A DNA stretch of 64,000 bases. Source: Octopus vulgaris (lineage: Eukaryota). Both the position numbers and the translations under genes were made by a program. The notes under the pieces are model-generated. The model did not search any database. It saw only the letters and a list, made by a program, of their open reading frames with translations, and was not told where the DNA came from. Within the stretch, counting starts at the first letter, position 1. Every line of letters starts with the position of its first letter. Of the stretch, positions 16,207 to 57,945 are shown in pieces. The stretch covers positions 20,212,001 to 20,276,000 of the forward strand of contig OX597837.1 of the NCBI GenBank assembly GCA_951406725.2. Reading direction: 5' to 3'.

Positions 16207-16360
16207 TGTGTGTTTGTTAGAACATGTTTGGGCACAGTGATACTGATAGTATAGTGTTACGACTGAATATACATATGCTGGAGTGTAAAGTGTTAGAGGA
16301 GTACAGAGCGTCATACGAAATTAAACAGAGATGACAGGAAAACAGGAATTACCTGGTCTC

Positions 16361-18940
<2,580 letters not shown>

Positions 18941-19304
18941 GTGCGTGCGAAAGTAAAGAGTGTTATAATTAAAAGGCAGGTTAGGTCGTGTGTGTTTATG
19001 CGATATTTATGTAATAGATCCAGAGACGGATTTGCATCTACGCATTATTTCTATATTTCAAAAAGACGTATATATGCTCGCACACACGCACACACACACA
19101 CACACACACACTCACAGGCAAACACGCCGGCTGTTATTCGATGTATTCAGGTGAGTATAGAGTTGCACATTTGCTTATATAGCTCCGTACATATTTCTTG
19201 CTCATCACCTTCTCCTCTGCAGCAACATCAGACACACCCCAATAAGAAAGAAATACACTTAAGATGCCAGCAGCACCTGCAACTATCACGACGGCTATAT
19301 TATA

Positions 19305-34318: not shown

Positions 34319-34527
34319 ACGTAAGGAGTATCAGCCATCTGAATGTGGCTAGCCACTGGGGGGGGGGGTGTTACTGATGCTTTTAGCCCTAGGCGATCAA
34401 CGTCACCAGAAGGACTTTAGACACTATCTCAGTGTCCTTGTGTTGTTTGCAAAGGGAGGTCATCCTCCCTCGAAGACACCGTGTACTACATACGGACTAT
34501 AGTTTCGAGGTCATTGCCTCTTGTCAA
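34319..34527 (-). repeat. 3' direct terminal repeat (209 bp)
   Basis: Matches 40219-40425 with about 4 substitutions and a 2-nt G-run indel. Confidence 0.97.
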
Positions 34528-34551
34528 CGCATGGCAAGCACCGGCCTTCGA
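34470..34551 (-). ncRNA. Complete type I hammerhead ribozyme with U3-A8 variant core
   Basis: UCGAAGGC CGGUGCU UGC CAUGCG | UUGACAA | GAGG-CAAUGA-CCUC | GAA | AC-UAUA-GU | C^ | CGUAUG U AGUAC ACGGU GUCUUCGA. Extended stem I of about 20 bp. Predicted cut between 34495 and 34494. Confidence 0.85.
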
Positions 34552-34908
34552 TGAAATTTTCTTTATTATGATCAATAGATCTAACATAGAATGGATACAT
34601 TACAGGACAAAACAATTACAAAAATGCTATGCGAGTTCGAATGAAATTTTAAAAATTACAAAATTAAAATTTTATGTCACTTGAACGAAAACTTGGCTTA
34701 CTTTGCCTTGAAACGAAACCTTGGCTTACTTTTGCCTTTATCACGAGAACTTTTAGTGCGTATGTTTTCTTTTCATTTCTTTTTTTTTTATTATTAATTC
34801 TTTATTTTAAACAGTTATGTACAGTGAAAGGTAATGGGAGGTACCAGTTTCAATTTTGAACCCGGCAGCCTATAAATCCCAGCAGCTGATTTTTCTTTTC
34901 CTCGATGA

Positions 34909-37900
34909 TTAAGCTGGGTTACTCTCACCCACCTTTCTCATCACATCCTTCCAACGTTCCATATACTCTTTCTGTGGCAGGCTCCTCTTCTCCAACCCCA
35001 TCTTGCTCTTCAGATGATATCCGAAGTATTTTAACAAACCGGGGCCAGAGATAAAGGACCCTTTCACCAGACCTTCCACTCTAGTTCTCCATACACACTC
35101 TTTCAATACTGCCACCGTACAGTAAAAACAAGCCTTACCTTCCTTTGAGAGTCCAGTTGGCGGTATCATCTTAATCATAGATCCAGCCGACAGCTGTACT
35201 CGTCCCAGATGCGACAACACGTGTTCCACGTAACTTATCAAGCCTGACAGCTCCCGACATTGTACAAAAGCGTGTTGAACGGTTTCATCGTCCAACCCAC
35301 ATCTTGGACACGTCGGTGGCACTGACATTCCGTGCCTGGATAACTTCTCGCGAACAGGTAATGCATTCCTATAGCACTGCCAGGTCAGGGATTTTTGGTA
35401 ATTATCCAAATACCCCGGCCTGAAAGTCTTCTTAAACAGGTTGGAGAGTTGATCCTCATCGAACCCCAGAGCCCTTCCTAGGACGTCGTCATTTTTTCCT
35501 CCTACCAGCCCTTTATAGAACACCGAGGTGGTATTCCCGCTGCCGGCCTTACCCATCTTGTGGATCAGCCAGAGTGCCTGTCGGCACTCCTTCTGCCATG
35601 AAGTCAGTTTACGTCCTTTAATGAGACCGGGTGTAAATCCCTCCATAGAGGCCGGTCGCGGGAAGAATTCCTCTGCCAGCGAACTCCACACCTTATCATC
35701 CTCCAGGTAACACCAGAGGTGTCTCAGCCTCAACGCATGCTTGCGCATCATTAGCCAAGGCATCCCCAGTCCACCCTTTAGCGGTTCCTGGCAACACACG
35801 GAGCGTCTCACAAGTGGCTTTCCTCCTTTCCACAAAAAGCGGAAAAGAAGTCGTTCCAACTTGTTTAACCACGAATCGGGGCAAGGCACGACGGTCAGGC
35901 GGTAGGTGACGACAGAGGCTATAAACATCTGTGCCACCTCCGCCCTCCCTTTCAAGGAAAGATGCCTTCCGGACCACTTCCGTACTATGGCATCCACCTT
36001 GCTCGTTACCTCGCTCCAATTCTTCTCCGTCTGGGAGTCTGGACCAAACCAGACTCCGAGCAATTTAACAGGACCATCCGTCCAGTGTCCAACAACACTG
36101 GACGGTATCTGCTTGTTCCTCCAGGTGCCGAGGCGCAAACCGATGGACTTGTCCCTGTTAACTTTTGCCCCTGCCACCGCTTCGTATCTATGGAGAGCAC
36201 CTACTACCCGAGGTAGCTGTGTTCCGTTGGACACGATGAGGGTGACGTCATCCGCATAGGCAGAAACAGACTTACCGCATCCGATTTCATTAGGGTTGCC
36301 TCCCAACTTCTCCAGCTTCCGCAGCAATGGCTCAAGAGCCAAAACATACAGGAGCGGGGACAAGGGGCACCCTTGACGAACTGAACGCTTGATCGAAAAC
36401 GGCTCCGTTAGGTAACCGTTTATCTGGACTGTGGACTTGATGCCGCTGTACATAGCTGAGATCCACCCGCAGAAGCCAGGGCCCAGCCCAGCCGCTTCGA
36501 GAACCGCCGCCAAGTACCGATGGTCCACCCTATCAAACGCTTTACTTTGGTCTAAATGGACCAATGCCCCTCCTTTGCCGTCTAATTTCCCGACCCTATC
36601 TATAGTGTAGCGGAGAAGGTGAAGATTATCCTGGATCGACCTGCCTGGGATTGCACATGTCTGTGCCTTCCCGACAAGTTTCTTCACGACAGCCGTCAAC
36701 CTTTTTGCTAACACCTTGGCCAAAATCTTAAACTCTACATTAAGTAGAGTTATGGGCCTGTAATTACTAATACTGTCCCCCTTGCTCGGGTCTTTCTGGA
36801 CCAGCGTCACAACTCCCCGACTCACAGAGCTGGGAATCCTCCCATTCTGTTGCCAGTTTGCATAGACGCTTGCCAGTATGTCCCCGAACAAGTCCGGCAT
36901 ACAACAATAAAATTCATAGGGTAGACCATCCAATCCCGGTGACTTTTCCCCGGCGCACTCGGCCATAACCCCTCTTACCTCTGCGGGAGAGATCGATCCT
37001 TCACAGCACTCCGCCTCACCTGCCGAGAGCCGAGGCCCACCAGCTAGGAAGTCCTTTAAGGTCTCCCCACGCTCGAGCGGGCTACCGCCCCCAAACAGCC
37101 GTGCGAAATGCTGGTGAAGGACCTTCTGCATCTCCTCCTGTCCATAGATCTTGCGGTCCTGCTCGTCAGTTAAGGACATAATACAGGACTTTTTGCCCTT
37201 CTGACTCTCCTCACGACGGGCCCATCCGGCAACGTTAATACCTTCTCGTTTTCCTGCACGTAACTTAGCTCTGACTCTACACCCCTCGTGCTTGGCGTTG
37301 AGGTGACGGTACAATACCGCTCTCGCTGCCAACACTCCGGATGCACAGCCAGATTCCATAGCCTCGTCTAAGTTCTTAACTAATTCGCCCTCTATTCTAG
37401 TCCTATCTAAACTTAGCTGCTTGCTAAATCTAATGGACTCCAAACGGATGGCTCTTTTGAGGGCGTGCCACCATCTATTATTAATGATGGTGCCACATAA
37501 TGCCCTCTGTACTAATTCCTTAATCCGGGTACGGAAAGCTTCACAGGTCAAAATAGACTTGTTCATCTTCCAGTACCCGGGACCTTGTCTATGGCATTTA
37601 TCTACATGTACCTCACACGTTACAAGTTTGTGATCCGTGTAAGGCACAACAGAGAATTGTGGACAGCTAACACTATTCCTATCTCGTTCCTTAACAAATA
37701 CTCTATCTATGTACGATCTGAGTGAGCCGTCGTTATTACTCCACGTCCACTGTGGAACGTTCGGCTCATCCAGTCGAAAACGGTCTACTAGATTAAAGCT
37801 CGCTAGTAGAGCCTTGAGGCCAGGATTCCCCTTCCTATCGCTCGAGCCTACACCATCCACCCGCGCATCGAGAATGGTGTTGAAATCCCCTACCAAGACT

Positions 37901-38298
37901 ACCGTTTTGGACGTCACTAGAAAGTGCTCCAGTTCCCGATAAAAACCGGTCTGCCCACGTCCGTTAGGAGCGTAGACAGCCACCAACCTGAAGGACTGCT
38001 TACTCACGTGCGTCACATCTAGGACAACCAGCCTACCTTCTGGGTCCAAAAAGACAGTACTTACCTGTAAGTCCAAGTTCTTCCTGAAAAGAACTGCCAC
38101 GCCTGCACCTCCCCCTCGGCTAGGAGAAATAAATTTCTCGTAACCATTGAGAAGTGGTGAGAACGCTTGCGGTCCCTTCATCTTGGACTCGGTAACAATA
38201 GCTACTTCGATTCTATGTGAAATGAGGTCGTCACGAAAACAAGCCTGTTTCCATTTCGATCCCATTCCACGCACATTTATACAACCTAACTTAATCAT
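34909..38298 (-). CDS. Tx1-clade ORF2: AP endonuclease, reverse transcriptase and C-terminal zinc finger (1129 aa, intact)
   Basis: APE motifs INVRG, AVYAP, GDFN, IDRVF, TDH. RT motifs SPGLDG, NYRPITLLN, DQSKAFDRV, VRQGCPLSP, YADD. C-terminal CPRC...ETVQHAFVQC. Confidence 0.97.
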   Translation of the reverse strand: MIKLGCINVRGMGSKWKQACFRDDLISHRIEVAIVTESKMKGPQAFSPLLNGYEKFISPSRGGGAGVAVLFRKNLDLQVSTVFLDPEGRLVVLDVTHVSKQSFRLVAVYAPNGRGQTGFYRELEHFLVTSKTVVLVGDFNTILDARVDGVGSSDRKGNPGLKALLASFNLVDRFRLDEPNVPQWTWSNNDGSLRSYIDRVFVKERDRNSVSCPQFSVVPYTDHKLVTCEVHVDKCHRQGPGYWKMNKSILTCEAFRTRIKELVQRALCGTIINNRWWHALKRAIRLESIRFSKQLSLDRTRIEGELVKNLDEAMESGCASGVLAARAVLYRHLNAKHEGCRVRAKLRAGKREGINVAGWARREESQKGKKSCIMSLTDEQDRKIYGQEEMQKVLHQHFARLFGGGSPLERGETLKDFLAGGPRLSAGEAECCEGSISPAEVRGVMAECAGEKSPGLDGLPYEFYCCMPDLFGDILASVYANWQQNGRIPSSVSRGVVTLVQKDPSKGDSISNYRPITLLNVEFKILAKVLAKRLTAVVKKLVGKAQTCAIPGRSIQDNLHLLRYTIDRVGKLDGKGGALVHLDQSKAFDRVDHRYLAAVLEAAGLGPGFCGWISAMYSGIKSTVQINGYLTEPFSIKRSVRQGCPLSPLLYVLALEPLLRKLEKLGGNPNEIGCGKSVSAYADDVTLIVSNGTQLPRVVGALHRYEAVAGAKVNRDKSIGLRLGTWRNKQIPSSVVGHWTDGPVKLLGVWFGPDSQTEKNWSEVTSKVDAIVRKWSGRHLSLKGRAEVAQMFIASVVTYRLTVVPCPDSWLNKLERLLFRFLWKGGKPLVRRSVCCQEPLKGGLGMPWLMMRKHALRLRHLWCYLEDDKVWSSLAEEFFPRPASMEGFTPGLIKGRKLTSWQKECRQALWLIHKMGKAGSGNTTSVFYKGLVGGKNDDVLGRALGFDEDQLSNLFKKTFRPGYLDNYQKSLTWQCYRNALPVREKLSRHGMSVPPTCPRCGLDDETVQHAFVQCRELSGLISYVEHVLSHLGRVQLSAGSMIKMIPPTGLSKEGKACFYCTVAVLKECVWRTRVEGLVKGSFISGPGLLKYFGYHLKSKMGLEKRSLPQKEYMERWKDVMRKVGESNPA

Positions 38299-38317
38299 CG
38301 AGAAAAAAGAAAATTAT

Positions 38318-39828
38318 TTACTCACGGTTGCGAGAGGGAGCCTGACAGATTCTTTCTGCCTGTCTCCCCCCACTCGCCGTTGCTGCTGGGTGTTTCACCG
38401 GCGTTGCCACCGGGCTCTGGGTTGGTGTGGCTGCCGGGCTAACGGGTAATTTCCCAGTTGTCACCTCCTGGGTGACATCCTTAATGAAGCCGGCTTTTAC
38501 GTGGCTTTGTAAGGTTTTGTCTTTCCATCCTTCTTCGCCGACCCTTCCATATCGCCACTCCGCTTCCTTCTCGGTCGCTTTGTAGCACCTGATCAGCGTA
38601 CTTGCTTTCACCCATGTTTCTACTCTCACGTTCTTTGTGGTGTATGCAATAATTTTTTCGTTGGGTTTAAACCCTTTTACAGTTGGGGGGTGGGGTTTGT
38701 TAAAGTGCTGGCCTATAAGTGTAGTACCGCCGGGGTGGGATTGGAGAATATTTTTAATTTGTTCGTCTGCGTTGTTTTTTTTTTTTTGATACGGGTGGGG
38801 AGTCAGGGGTGATGGATTTTTTCCTTTTGTTGGACACGTTCGTAAATTCCATGTCTTCTTGTTTATTTGTTTTTGTTGCATTATTTTCCTCATCCTTTCC
38901 TTTCTCATTTTGCATTTCGTTCTTGTCTTCCTCCTTTTTGGAGTTCGACCTGTTTATTTTTTCCTCCTTGTTTTCGCCAGCCGTTACTTTTTTCTCCACT
39001 TTGCTGCTTTCTGCGTTCTTCACAGCGTTTTGTGGGGGCGTTGCCCGCATTATTTTTTTTTGTGCAAACAGAGCGAACGTGGCCCTTTTGCCCGCACTTA
39101 AAACATCTGGGCCTGCGTCCTTCCACCGAAACTCGTATGGAGTGCCCCTCCCCCACGAAGACTCTGTCTGGTAGGCTTTCCAACGTCGCATTTTCCGCCT
39201 GGATTATCATCTCCAGCTGCTGGCCTCTCCAGTGTTTTGCAATTTTTCTCTTCATACTTAAAATTGTCAATTTTGATTCAACATCAAAAATGACCGCTGT
39301 TGCCGCCCACATCACGTCGTAGCCCGTTGGTATATCTTCTAGGGTCACTTTTGCGGTTCTGCATCCTAAATATAAGGGTAGCAGTATTATACTCTCGTTT
39401 TTCAACGTTTGTGTCGAAATTTGCCTTGCTACTTCCGCCGTTTCAAAATGCGCCTCCACTGTAGCGCTTCTTGCACCTCGGTTGACATGACTAACTTTAC
39501 TCCATATTGGAGCCATACACTTTTCGACCATTTCGTTTTTCACGTCGGTCATTCGTTTTTCCTTGATATTGTACACCCTGTAGGTGACCATTTTTTCCTT
39601 TATTGCTTGTATAGTTTCGGGGGGCGGTACCAATCGTGTTTCTTCACCACTTTTTTGCACCAGCGATCTAAACTTGAATAATCTTTCCATTGATACCTCC
39701 ATTTCTTCGACTTCGCCACCTACGGCGTCTGAAAAACTGGGTTTTGTCTGTGTTTCCTTTTGTTTAACAGTTGTTATACTTTCTCCCATCTCGGGAAAGT
39801 CTTTTTTTGAACTTAAGTCTAATTCCAT
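38318..39828 (-). CDS. ORF1 nucleic-acid-binding protein (~502 aa if two single-A frameshifts in A-runs are removed)
   Basis: Zinc knuckle CFKCGQKGHVRSVC. Three overlapping ORF pieces join at A9 (39053-39061) and A13 (38775-38787). The stop lies 19 nt before the ORF2 ATG. Confidence 0.85.
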
Positions 39829-40218
39829 ATTAGACAACACAAACTTGTCACAAATGACAAGAGAATTTTTTTTTTCCAAAAATAACCTATACAGGTTAAG
39901 AGTTCACACAAAACAGCACACAGAAATTTTCTACCCCGAAGGGCGAAAATTACTGGGTCAAAAACAGTTCAACAATGATATTACTTGTAACACGACAGAG
40001 TAGACAAACGGAAACGAACTCACACAACGATTTGCAGCAACAGAAAAATATTGGTATACACCGAGGAAAAATTCAAAAAACACCGGTTTTCGATGAAGGA
40101 GTTCCCTTTACAAACAATATATAATGTTTTTCACAGTAACCACCGTCACTGATGTAGAAAAACTGTCTGAAAACAATAATAAATCTCTGAACGAGATATA
40201 AACAGTAACCGCTCGACA

Positions 40219-40425
40219 ACGTAAGGGGTATCAGCCATCTGAATGTGGCTAGCCACTGGTGGGGGGTGTTACTGATGCTTTTAGCCCCAGGCGATCAACG
40301 TCACCAGAAGGACTTTAGACACTATCTCAGTGTCCTTGTGTTGTTTGCAAAGGGAGGTCATCCTCCCTCGAAGACACCGGGTACTACATACGGACTATAG
40401 TTTCGAGGTCATTGCCTCTTGTCAA
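40219..40425 (-). repeat. 5' direct terminal repeat (207 bp) starting exactly at U3 of the hammerhead core
   Basis: Same core, stems II and III and GUC site (predicted cut 40393/40392), but the 5' strand of stem I is absent. Confidence 0.95.
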
Positions 40426-40699: not shown

Positions 40700-40772
40700 C
40701 CTTCTTCTTCTTCTTCTTCTTCTTCTTCTTCTTCTTCTTCTTCTTCTTTCCCTCCTTCTCCTTCTTCTTCTC

Positions 40773-40804
<32 letters not shown>

Positions 40805-41565
40805 CCTTCCTCTCCTTCTCTCTTCTTCTTCTTCTTCTTCTTCTTCTTCCTCTCCTTCTTCTTTCTCTCCTTCCCCTTTTTCTTCTTCTTCTTCTTCTTC
40901 TTCTTCTTCTTCTCCTCCTTCTTCTTCTTCTTCTTCTTCTTCCTCTCCTTCTTTCTCTCCTTCCCCTTCTTCTTCTTCTTCTTCTTCTTCTTCTTCTTCT
41001 TCTTCTCCTTCTTCTTCTCCTTCTTCTTCTTCTTCTTCTTCTTCTTCTTCTTCTTCTTCTTCTTCTTCTTCTTCTTCTTCTTCTTCTACTTCCTCTCCTA
41101 CTCCTACTTCTCCTCCTCCTCCTCGTCCTCGTCCTCCTCCTTCTTCTTCTTCTCCTTCTCCTTCTCCTTCTACCTCTTCTTCTTTTTCTTCTTTGTTTTC
41201 TTCTTCTTCTTCTCTCACATCCTTCTTTCTCTTTTACATTTCATTCTTGCTTTCTATATTTTCTTCTTTCTCTGTCATTCACCTCCTTATTCTTCATTTT
41301 CTATTTGTTTTTCATCCAATGTCTTCTCTCTTTTTTCTTTTTTTTCTTTTTCTTGTCTCTTTCTTTCACTCCCCCATATTTTTCTTCTTCTTTTTCCTGT
41401 TATACTTCATTCTTCTTCTTCTTCTTCTTCTTCTTCTTCTTCTTCTTCTTCTTCTTCTTCTTCTTCTTCTTTTTCTTCTTCTTCTTCTCCTTCTTTTTCT
41501 TCTTCTTCTTTTTCTTCTTCTTCTTCTTCTTCATTATCATCATCATCACCTTCATCTAAATCATT

Positions 41566-41616
<51 letters not shown>

Positions 41617-41650
41617 GTCATCATCATCATCGTCATCATCATCATCATCA
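40700..41650. repeat. (CTT)n/(CAT)n polypyrimidine-rich tract
   Basis: Visible directly. Confidence 0.95.
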
Positions 41651-42387
41651 ATATTATCGTCAGCTTCATTGTCGCCATCTATCTTCTCTCTACATATCTC
41701 TCACCTTCTTTATTCCCGCTCCGCTCAACGTTCCACGCCGCCACTCCCATCACCCCATTCCCATCGCTACCACCACCATGCTTTTCTCACCACTACCGCT
41801 ACCTCCACTAACCACCCTCTAAACCCCACCCCACTCACTACCACCCAATTCAATCCTGAAGAAGTTATTATTAACTTGGAAGATTAAAGAGAGACTCCAT
41901 TTTCCCCCGGAACTCTCCACATTCTACAATGGAACGTTTTATCCCCAGGATGACTTTTGCACTGGCAAAGTGTTGAAGACAAAACTGATCATTTCGCCAT
42001 CTCCATTTCGTTTACCATAATGATATTAGCGGCAGAAAGATGCTTTATAGATAGATGTATCGCCGCCACCATCTGCGCATGCGTGCTGCCGTGTCTTCAA
42101 TGATTGGTAGTACTTAACATCAATTTTTCATCAATTTCCGTTGTTATTCAGCCTCAAGACAGACCTGGTCGAGTAGACCTATGATCAAAGGCCTTGCAAC
42201 TTTGGCCGTTTCACCTTATACTTTGGCATAGTTTACCTACGACTGACTACATTATCTTAATATGTCAATGTTATTTGAGAACGGTTTTTCAGATGTGATG
42301 CAAGAGGAATTTATTTCGCTGCTGTTTCTAGCAATTCGCTTAGCCATGATGATGATCGACTTTCAATCCTCAGTCGGAATTGCTTCT

Positions 42388-55659: not shown

Positions 55660-56190
55660 GAACTGTCGAGTTATGGGGAGTTGATTGGTAAGCAGTTCAC
55701 TGAAGATTGCCCCGCGGCCCTCTTTTGGCCGGGAGGGGAAGGCAATTTTTATTTATCTAGTGGCTGTAGCGAAAGAGGTAGTATGGTGGACCCGTTTGAA
55801 AGGGCTAAAGACAGGCACTTTCTTCATCAACTTTTTCAAGTTTCACTTGAAAAGGAAGTTGAGGGTGAAGAGGGAAGTGCTGCCTTGTAGCAAGTTTGTT
55901 GAAAGGTGGGTGAACATTGAAAGAATGGCCAGTGTGAAAGGACCAATTCTGAGCGTGCACCTGTAAACAAAAGAAGGACCCTTGCCCTGTTGTTCAGGCA
56001 CCCGTGACTTTTGTGGTTTTTTCACGAGGTCCTTAATGCGCCTCCTCTATTAGGAATTTTAAATTGTTTAATTTTAATTATTATATTGTTTACACGTAAA
56101 ACCCATTCTATCGTCTTTTTTTTTGTCTTTTATGTTGTTCTATGTCACTTTATGTAATTTTATGTAAGCCCTTGTGGCCAATAAACGAAT
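55660..56190 (+). mobile_element. 5'-truncated Tx1-clade LINE (related family)
   Basis: REGKAIFIYLVAVAKEVVWWTRLKGL...FHLKRKLRVKR...FVERW aligns with the main ORF2 C-terminus KEGKACFYCTVAVLKECVWRTRVEGL...YHLKSK...YMERW. Ends in AATAAA (56180-56185) plus (ATT)n. Confidence 0.85.
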
Positions 56191-56219
56191 TAATTATTAT
56201 TATTATTATTATTATTATT

Positions 56220-56979
56220 CAGTAGTTTTTATTTTTATAGCGTGCTTTCACTTCACTACCGAGCGCAGCTCTGTGCGCCTTGGGTATGTGCTGTGATTTG
56301 TTGTGATGCTCTGATGGTTATTGTATGGAAAGTGTTCTGCGTAGGATGTGTGCAGTGCCTAGTAGTGCAATTTTCTGTATGTTATATGTGTTTGTAAGTC
56401 CTGGTGTTTTTGTTATGTATTTGTCTGAATATTTTTTTATCATGCCTAATGCACCTACTATGATAGGAATTGTTTCTGTTTTCAGGTTCCACATTCTAGT
56501 TACCTCTATTTCCAGGTCTTTGTATTTTGAGAGTTTCTCCATTTCTTTTAGAGAAACGTTGTCATCTGCCGGTATTGATACATCAATTAGAAAGCATTTT
56601 TTTCTTCATGATCTCTGACAACTATATCTGGTCTGTTGGCCTTAATTTCTCTATCTGTGTGTATCGGCATATCCCAGAGTATGGTTGCTTTCTCGTTTTC
56701 TGTGACCTTTTCTGGTGTGTGCCTATACCATCTTTTTTCTGTTGTTATTCCATAATGTTGGCATAGCTTCCAATGTATGTAGGTTCCAACTCTGTCATGT
56801 CTGTGAATATATTCCTTCTTAGCCAGGACTGGGCAGCTAGAGATAATATGATTTATTGTTTCTTGTCCATCTCCACATATTCTGCAGTTACTTGTAATAT
56901 TTCTTTTCATTACATGTTTTTGGTAATTTCTGGTGGGGAGGCTTTGGTCTTGTGCTGCAATTAAAAATCCTTCCGTTTC

Positions 56980-56980
<1 letters not shown>
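56220..56980 (-). mobile_element. R4/Dong-clade LINE 3' fragment in (TAA)n
   Basis: CRICGDGQETINHIISSC...RHD, ILWD...NRPDIV, KLSKYKDL...IPIIVGALG, i.e. CCHC plus a PD-D/ExK RLE domain. (TTA)n on both sides. Confidence 0.9.
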
Positions 56981-57061
<81 letters not shown>

Positions 57062-57124
57062 GTTATCGTTATCGTTATTATTATTAGTAGTCGTATTAAT
57101 AATAATAATAATTATAATAATTAA

Positions 57125-57605: not shown

Positions 57606-57945
57606 GAAGAGGCGGATCAGAGTGAAGAGGGAGGTGCACACTTGTAGTAAATTTAAGAATTTGCTAGAAGGGTGGATGAAAGTGGCAACCATGGTGCGCT
57701 TCTGAGTGGAGTAAAAGAGAGAGGAAACACTTACTTCAGTGGTCAGAGAAACCGTGATTTTCTATGGGGTCTGCACGCTTTTCCCTTGGAATTCTCCCTT
57801 TATTATTGGGGAATTGTAATTGTTTAACTTTAGTGTTCAATTTTGTTATTGTTTTATGTTTACGCGGTAAACCCTTCCGTCTAAAACCTTTGTATTTGCG
57901 TCCCTGTGTGTTCTCTGAGGCCCACGTGGCCAATAAAGGAAACAT
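57606..57945 (+). mobile_element. Short Tx1-clade 3' end
   Basis: KRRIRVKREV..CSKF..EGW. The 3' end gtggccaataaa plus att repeats is shared with 56174-56185. Confidence 0.7.

Follow-up and report, generated by a model that had tools for sequence, protein, structure and literature searches.

A stretch of 64,000 nucleotides of the Octopus vulgaris genome (hereafter the window) contains, on its minus strand, a full-length Tx1-like LINE and, directly beyond the AATAAA of that LINE, a hammerhead ribozyme motif with U3-A8 in place of C3-G8 in its core. The locus raises the question of which element the ribozyme belongs to and how the two came to lie end to end. A sequence-only reading had proposed that the ribozyme module replaces the ordinary tail of the LINE. 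Judged from the other copies of both elements in the genome, the hammerhead is instead part of a tandem retrozyme of ~357 nt, here called R1, and the adjoining LINE uses R1 as its insertion target.

The type I hammerhead occupies 34533-34489 of the minus strand and lies within an extended stem I hairpin at 34470..34551 (R1 positions 2-83). Its parts are stem I CAUGCG/CGUAUG (34533-34528/34494-34489), the catalytic core UUGACAA with U3 and A8 (34527-34521), stem II GAGG/CCUC (34520-34517/34510-34507), GAAA (34506-34503) and the palindromic stem III ACUAUAGU (34503-34496), followed by a predicted cleavage site after GUC at 34495/34494 (R1 position 58/59). The sequence-only reading had placed every one of these parts correctly, and it was also right about the hammerhead type, the U3-A8 core and the position directly beyond AATAAA (34567-34562). 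Three stems, the core, GAAA, an NUH site and an open stem I thus make the motif a hammerhead by its parts.

The 85-nt region folds at a z score of -2.5, with 3 of 200 shuffles as good, and its minimum-energy fold retains stem I and mispairs the core, so that the case for the active fold rests on covariation. We therefore aligned 23 family members, hand-picked to span the subfamilies from 65 distinct sequences plus a few rows from other loci. Across them 94.6% of the cells paired (32-51% in controls with the structure slid along the alignment) and 10 of the 29 pairs were altered on both sides, covariation across copies being one of the checks suggested with the sequence-only reading; the covariation score was reached by none of 500 shuffles, a count that is not a probability as the rows are related by descent. 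The hammerhead motif is, on this comparative evidence, real and beyond chance. A search with the Rfam hammerhead models, the other check that had been suggested, gave no match at the gathering score, nor at E values up to 10; these models may lack coverage of the U3-A8 core variant. Stem III has kept its self-complementarity through several sequence changes in the R1 family, which suggests that the R1 hammerhead would cleave as a dimer, the form for which a self-complementary stem III is expected according to the text of PMC7229834.

A second copy of the hammerhead module, overlooked by the sequence-only reading, lies upstream of the LINE at 40425-40219 (minus strand) and is followed by a spacer of ~120 nt. 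Module and spacer together make up the 357-nt R1 unit, whose length varies between 355 and 357 nt. The window thus holds R1 on both sides of the LINE: downstream, positions 1-234 of the unit (34319..34552, minus strand), with its 3' end in the more frequent of two hot spots for such ends, and upstream a 5'-truncated unit (40098..40425, minus strand) matching the downstream copy at 203 of 207 aligned bases. In this upstream unit the hammerhead begins only at the core, so that stem I is missing its 5' strand; the GUC lies at 40395-40393.

R1 is mostly found without any LINE, and 117 exact empty target sites are present genome-wide. To describe its anatomy we took 60 loci from 100 listed sites and added 7 from earlier, giving 67 loci, a sample biased toward copies holding the target site, in which 108 arms passed an 88% identity filter. 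Their 3' ends were concentrated at positions 231-235 (51 arms) and 272-284 (41 arms), mostly in (TA)n or AT-rich DNA, while the 5' ends were spread and the arms reached up to 3.5 units; 36 of the 67 loci showed a head-to-head arrangement. The 5' ends of the 108 arms did not pile up at the cleavage site (none at position 59 and three within 2 nt) or at the start (one at +1). The target site occurred once in 67 free arms, not at all in 34 and more than once in 7. Because so few free arms have more than one site, counting the R1 units that follow the LINE was abandoned as a test of joint movement. R1 has the marks of a retrozyme, namely tandem non-coding units within the range of ~150-450 bp, each with a type I hammerhead, and dispersed insertions of the Penelope type with 5' truncation, inverted arms and AT-rich targets. 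Partial tandems, inverted 5'-truncated arms and a bias to microsatellites are described as features of Penelope-type insertion in PMC8557442. By these features R1 fits the animal non-LTR retrozymes (bioRxiv 10.64898/2026.07.22.740005). At the 3' side of one Penelope-type fragment beside a LINE copy we found no R1 match. In some U2 arrays the spacers contain a short stretch derived from R1, part of it inverted (L073:2080-2200; also L015, L082, L084, L085 and L086); this stretch is carried within the U2 array unit and may be either an old insertion that is carried passively or a regulatory element put to new use.

The LINE (family a) spans 5525 bp at 34556..40080 on the minus strand and is very recent. 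Its ORF2 is open over 1129 aa from the ATG (34909..38298, minus strand) and encodes an AP endonuclease, a reverse transcriptase and a zf-RVT domain; PF03372, PF00078 and PF13966 scored over the cut-off and PF00098 just under it. The ORF1 region (38318..39828, minus strand) is divided between two frames, one of 307 aa that weakly matches a CCHC zinc knuckle and one of 196 aa. Several near-identical copies have two frames like the window copy, and a copy elsewhere (L147, 2119-7660) has a single frame of 503 aa; the break is either an assembly error in A-runs or real. The ORF1/ORF2 domain set and the target specificity with target-site duplication are those of the Tx1 clade. A search for protein homologues returned almost no named relatives and no named Tx1 reference, and with the assignment made from domains and target specificity we call the LINE Tx1-like rather than Tx1. 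Its AATAAA (34562..34567) lies 6 nt before the LINE end, with no poly(A) tail after it. A target-site duplication of 17 bp, extending from -3 to +14 around the predicted transcription start (40094, minus strand), flanks the element at 34539..34555 (3' copy) and 40081..40097 (5' copy), and the two copies are identical at 15 of 17 positions.

Two fragments elsewhere in the window had been cited as relatives ending in (ATT)n. The one near 56185 does end in AATAAA and (ATT)n, and it is a distant relative (36% over 91 aa); the one near 57937 has just a short ATT run, and it gave no protein match. A further non-LTR element is represented at 56200-57111 (minus strand) by its 3' part, which has a match to zf-RVT, a restriction-like nuclease motif recognized by eye and an (AAT)n end; the (ATT)n assigned to the 56185 fragment is common to this element. 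We found no tRNA genes in the 64-kb window. Long open frames at 16297-18972 and 40700-41900 are apparently low-complexity repeats, not genes, the sequence being GAA-rich at 40700-41500 and showing strong composition skews.

To establish the relationship between the LINE and R1, we located the 3' ends of family a with a 19-mer found in the LINE only. The 29 matches comprised 22 3' ends flanked by R1, five at U2 +1, one off-target copy and one lone 19-mer without an element; among those flanked by R1, 19 were joined to it directly (L027 included) and 3 via a nested element. The window LINE shows no difference in 5517 positions from the copy at L111 and two in 5516 from that at L112, and yet the R1 flanks are 8.4% and 9.3% apart, respectively; at L115 the LINE is 0.5% from the window copy and the host R1 subfamily 29% away. 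Near-identical LINEs in R1 copies 8-9% apart mean that the insertions were independent. On both sides of the LINE the target duplication follows the sequence variant of the respective host; one is present even at a 5'-truncated copy (L023), and two other LINE families are nested at the same R1 site. The off-target copy (L021) has a 16-bp duplication and ends at TTCATCGC. Among the copies at U2, L147 differs from the window LINE at 27 of 5522 positions. The 3' flank of these copies starts at -3 and covers all of U2 (model positions 1-192), so that an intact U2 coding sequence follows the LINE, cut off from its promoter. We did not see family a in R2, a second retrozyme described below, or among 20 of the 42 U1 loci. 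Taken together, the flanks identify R1 as an insertion target of the LINE. The proposal that the module replaces the LINE tail does not hold in the light of these data, as the module is a separate retrozyme serving as target and the same LINE ends equally precisely before U2 genes. The related suggestion of read-through into the ribozyme fares better: none of the LINE 3' ends checked carries a poly(A) tail, which makes read-through plausible, although the module that would be reached is not owned by the LINE.

Several loci have unusual structures. At L111 and L112 (G000:C4:124124755-124137262) a full LINE is present in both arms of one head-to-head R1 locus; the two LINEs differ at 1 of 5513 positions and the R1 arms by 2.7%, perhaps through a local hot spot or a short hop. 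At L123:1605-1662 the R1 flank stops exactly at GUC and is joined to the 5' region of another element, possibly the trace of a single event in which self-cleaved RNA was used as template. L128 and L132 are 5'-truncated and have no R1 upstream, the DNA upstream of L128 being other repeats, and at L136 (1033-2247 and 5473-5555) a 5'-truncated LINE is joined to a Penelope-type GIY-YIG frame and an inverted R1 arm, with no target duplication. Read-through RNA may at times be copied. An element of ~1.6 kb that ends in an AATAAA of its own and gives no match to ORF2 is nested at the same R1 site at L125, L132-L133 and L138 and is possibly a non-autonomous partner of the LINEs. Finally, an older family-a copy (L134:2064-7588) lies between other LINE ends at a different duplicated site, possibly a third type of target.

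In this genome, TCAGT is found at -56 to -60 in all 19 distinct upstream regions of U1 and in 22 of 24 of U2, drawn from 20 of the 42 listed U1 genes and 30 of the 48 listed U2 genes; in U5, which was held out of training, two of three genes have it, at -56 and -57. The motif, which was derived from this genome and which we take to be the PSE, lies in U1, U2 and U5 alike within the ~55-65 nt upstream of the start that are expected for a snRNA-type promoter. In R1, 19 of the 22 regions without a LINE have the same TCAGT, at -55 to -59 relative to the ATCG at which the LINE inserts; the other 3 are truncated copies. In the window, the predicted start is preceded at a distance of 59 nt by the PSE-like element (40139..40156, minus strand), with ATCAGTG at 40153-40147; this 7-mer occurs 12 times over the two strands of the window, a background of ~0.0006 per 6-nt slot.

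We built a matrix from 14 U1 and U2 sites alone and recorded the distance from its best plus-strand match to the end of the target duplication. This distance was 72 nt for U2 and 74 nt for U1, 71-73 nt in five of the six R1 regions (the remaining one having a shorter spacer) and, in R2, 73 nt in all 4 regions scored of the 5 given. The R2 motif is degenerate, scoring 9-12 against 14-19 for the training sites, and with position ignored the best score was reached by 2-22 of 300 shuffles for R2 and by 0-31 of 300 for R1. With the motif taken as the PSE, the R1 insertion site is the counterpart of U2 +1. The motif would then act as a promoter in R1, and two observations bear on this. The U2-inserted copies carry, after the U2 duplication, a 14-nt leader matching an R1 subfamily from ATCG onward, which implies that some LINE RNA once started at, or within a base of, the R1 ATCG; a single ancestral event may be enough to explain it. 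Moreover, the upstream R1 hammerhead of the window lacks the 5' strand of stem I, making the PSE-like motif the likelier source of the LINE 5' end.

A sister LINE family, d, ~85% identical in ORF2 and found through a copy with a U1-type leader, extends the pattern. Among its best 25 3' ends, 17 lie in R2, 3 run across the R2 duplication into a further d copy, 1 lies at U1 +1 and 4 lie elsewhere, and none was seen in R1 or at U2 +1. Of 20 stretches examined for 5' ends, 12 showed R2 with the duplication, 1 was truncated and 7 gave no match. R2 has a unit spacing of 362 nt, and a single prediction of its hammerhead fold gave a z score of -3.5. It has no significant similarity to R1, the best match being 11 bp. 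The duplications at U1 and R2 have 5-6 of 17 bases in common and those at U2 and R1 7-11 of 17, around ATCG, and the endonuclease of the U1-leader copy is 94-95% identical to those of the R2-inserted copies. The sites of the 4 stray d copies are TATAC-like or TA repeats and look similar to the 5' end of U1, which indicates some recognition of sequence. We also noted long head-to-tail LINE arrays with ~5.3 kb spacing and many open ORF2 frames (G000:C2:73046273-73068721, C9:59205622-59248569 and C5:29180402-29207501) and further LINE families of 61-80% identity, among them those at 77% and 61% endonuclease identity.

The explanation that we favor, and consider probable on comparison of these copies, is one of nesting: a Tx1-like LINE targets the snRNA-type start within a promoter-bearing retrozyme, R1, just as it targets U2 +1. 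It builds on the observed nesting, independent targeted insertion, -3 to +14 duplication and shared motif and spacing. R1 is a non-autonomous tandem retrozyme; its anatomy is that described above, and its spread into (TA)n and AT-rich DNA would be the work of a Penelope-type mobilizer. Each unit carries the snRNA-type element 59 nt before the ATCG start, where it would promote transcription, and with a circular or multimeric RNA as template R1 could carry along a promoter lying upstream of its own start. Young LINEs insert at the R1 start, and likewise at U2 +1, duplicating -3 to +14. The host start remains before the LINE, which could then be transcribed from the borrowed promoter, in the window from 40094, with a 14-nt host leader, as the leaders at new sites suggest. 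The LINE transcript would pass AATAAA into the downstream R1, where the hammerhead would cut it 61 nt beyond the LINE end. Targeting itself may proceed in two steps, with recruitment to snRNA-type initiation sites followed by a choice of site through a short sequence or through pairing of the read-through RNA with the nicked target. Such a combination of position and sequence has, in our judgment, about an even chance of being correct.

The same nesting could also arise if the LINE found its site by DNA sequence alone, through endonuclease preference and RNA-primer pairing, the shared promoter distance merely reflecting that retrozymes begin like snRNA genes. We regard this as a serious possibility, somewhat short of an even chance. 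In its favor, the U2 and R1 duplications agree at 7-11 of 17 bases, an off-target family-a copy (L021) ends at TTCATCGC, every family is faithful to its own targets and the stray d copies lie at look-alikes of the U1 5' end; Tx1 targeting has, moreover, been ascribed mainly to the endonuclease in the text of PMC4494074. Against this, U1 and R2 agree at just 5-6 of 17 bases and nevertheless share the distance to the PSE motif and are served by endonucleases 94-95% identical, a comparison that favors positional targeting, and all four recurrent target types found are PSE-linked starts. Taken to its limit, the LINE lineage would be steered by position, via the machinery of snRNA initiation, to the +1 of whichever gene is driven by a PSE, with the retrozymes as mobile, expendable expression cassettes that provide a promoter and a self-cleaved 3' end and with switching among U1, U2 and two dissimilar retrozymes; we put this forward tentatively, as roughly a one-in-three prospect.

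The core of the R1 hammerhead allows a further alternative to be weighed. The sequence-only reading had taken C3U plus G8A to be compensatory. Positions 3 and 8 do always pair (U-G in 12, U-A in 6 and C-G in 5 of the 23 rows, unpaired in none), but the commonest R1 core is U3-G8 and not C3-G8. Genome-wide, the main U3-G8 form has 231 exact matches and the U3-A8 form of the window 13; the latter is thus a minority in R1, one CpG-type change away from U3-G8. The U3-G8 wobble of the commonest core may cut slowly. The U3-A8 core could accordingly have arisen through neutral CpG decay from a U3-G8 ribozyme that was weak or dead, the change from UUGACGA to UUGACAA being a CpG-type transition and the variant the rarer of the two. 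We find this unlikely, since the variant has been amplified together with linked changes (the first stem II pair going from G-U to G-C), U3-A8 is found again in several subfamilies of R1 and in all 17 of the 17 flanks in R2, and a C3-A8 core is absent among the 65 distinct R1 sequences. Natural U3-A8 covariation and a natural U3-G8 core have both been published (PMC3088659 and PMC7151607, respectively), so the core by itself is not new and the ribozyme is a known hammerhead type carrying a known core variant.

Hardly credible, finally, is the original view that the module is the 3' end of the LINE or that LINE and flanking module move as a composite with terminal repeats: it would suit the 22 of 29 3' ends running into R1 with poly(A) seen in none, the stop at GUC in L123, the truncated L128 and L132 without upstream R1, the GIY-YIG frame and inverted arm at L136 and the LINEs on both arms at L111 and L112, but it conflicts with identical LINEs in R1 copies 8-9% apart, with 0.5% LINE against 29% R1 divergence at L115, with the target duplications, U2 insertions, nested families and more than 100 LINE-free R1 sites, with the other repeats upstream of L128 and with the 1/5513 LINE against 2.7% flank differences of L111 and L112, which fit two late insertions.

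Under the nesting explanation, PSE-driven gene starts, including those of another mobile element, constitute a new target class for site-specific LINEs, and the targeting of snRNA-type start sites in U1, U2 and two retrozymes is a new variant of target-specific retrotransposition. The two retrozyme families with the snRNA motif of the genome at snRNA spacing offer an explanation, open to test, of the transcription of animal retrozymes, and the R1 family by itself provides hammerhead cores with C3-G8, U3-G8 and U3-A8 as a natural series.

The closest known relatives of R1 are the animal non-LTR retrozymes (PMC7229834; bioRxiv 10.64898/2026.07.22.740005), which have type I hammerheads with a weak helix III, are non-coding and are linked to Penelope-like elements, the tandem units of mussels measuring 350-390 bp against 355-362 here. 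R1 and R2, known here from DNA alone, differ in their PSE-like motif, in their U3-G8 or U3-A8 cores and in being recurrent LINE targets; a review states that retrozymes seem to be without promoters (PMC7761336). Newt satellite 2 is likewise a hammerhead tandem repeat and is reportedly transcribed from a snRNA-type promoter, according to a statement and a cited title in PMC2220036; the animal and the sequence are different, and we found no report of a LINE at its start.

For the LINE, Keno and Utopia are comparable in inserting into U2 snRNA genes, sometimes in tandem, and Keno, as described in PMC4640811 and PMC4494074, is also a Tx1-clade element with an AP endonuclease. Their site is given as U2 nucleotide 38/39 with a 3' flank from 39 (PMC4640811), whereas here the flank starts at -3, which rules out identity with Keno, and most copies here lie in retrozymes. 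Tx1L in Tx1D and the crocodilian Tx1-Mar in Mariner-N4 are, in the text of PMC4494074, Tx1-clade LINEs targeting mobile elements, with tandem nesting across the duplication and possible transcription from the flanking target, but the targets named there are DNA or LTR transposons. The same text lists transposons, microsatellites, satellites, U2, U5 and 5S among Tx1 targets, so a precedent among the satellites is possible. Dada DNA transposons are described as inserting inside U1 and U6 (PMC8869645). In the titles, abstract openings and passages covered, largely from openly available papers, we found no LINE targeting a retrozyme or a snRNA +1; a precedent may exist in Repbase, in closed journals, in figure 3 of PMC4494074 or in supplementary material.

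Penelope-like elements with pseudo-LTR hammerheads, as portrayed in PMC8557442, resemble free R1 in their partial tandems, inverted 5'-truncated arms and microsatellite bias, and the window locus superficially resembles an element flanked by pLTRs. The coding part here is, however, an AP-endonuclease LINE and the flanking repeats are its pre-existing target; a pLTR-flanked composite as the rule is ruled out by near-identical LINEs in divergent R1 flanks. Ty3, Ty1 and Dictyostelium TRE provide the precedent for position, as they integrate position-specifically at the starts of multicopy small-RNA genes via host transcription factors, and the genes that they use are Pol III genes. The sites described here are in contrast Pol II snRNA-type starts, at which tethering is hypothetical; if targeting proves positional, it would be the Pol II counterpart of tRNA-gene targeting, with young copies with open ORF2 at hand for its study.
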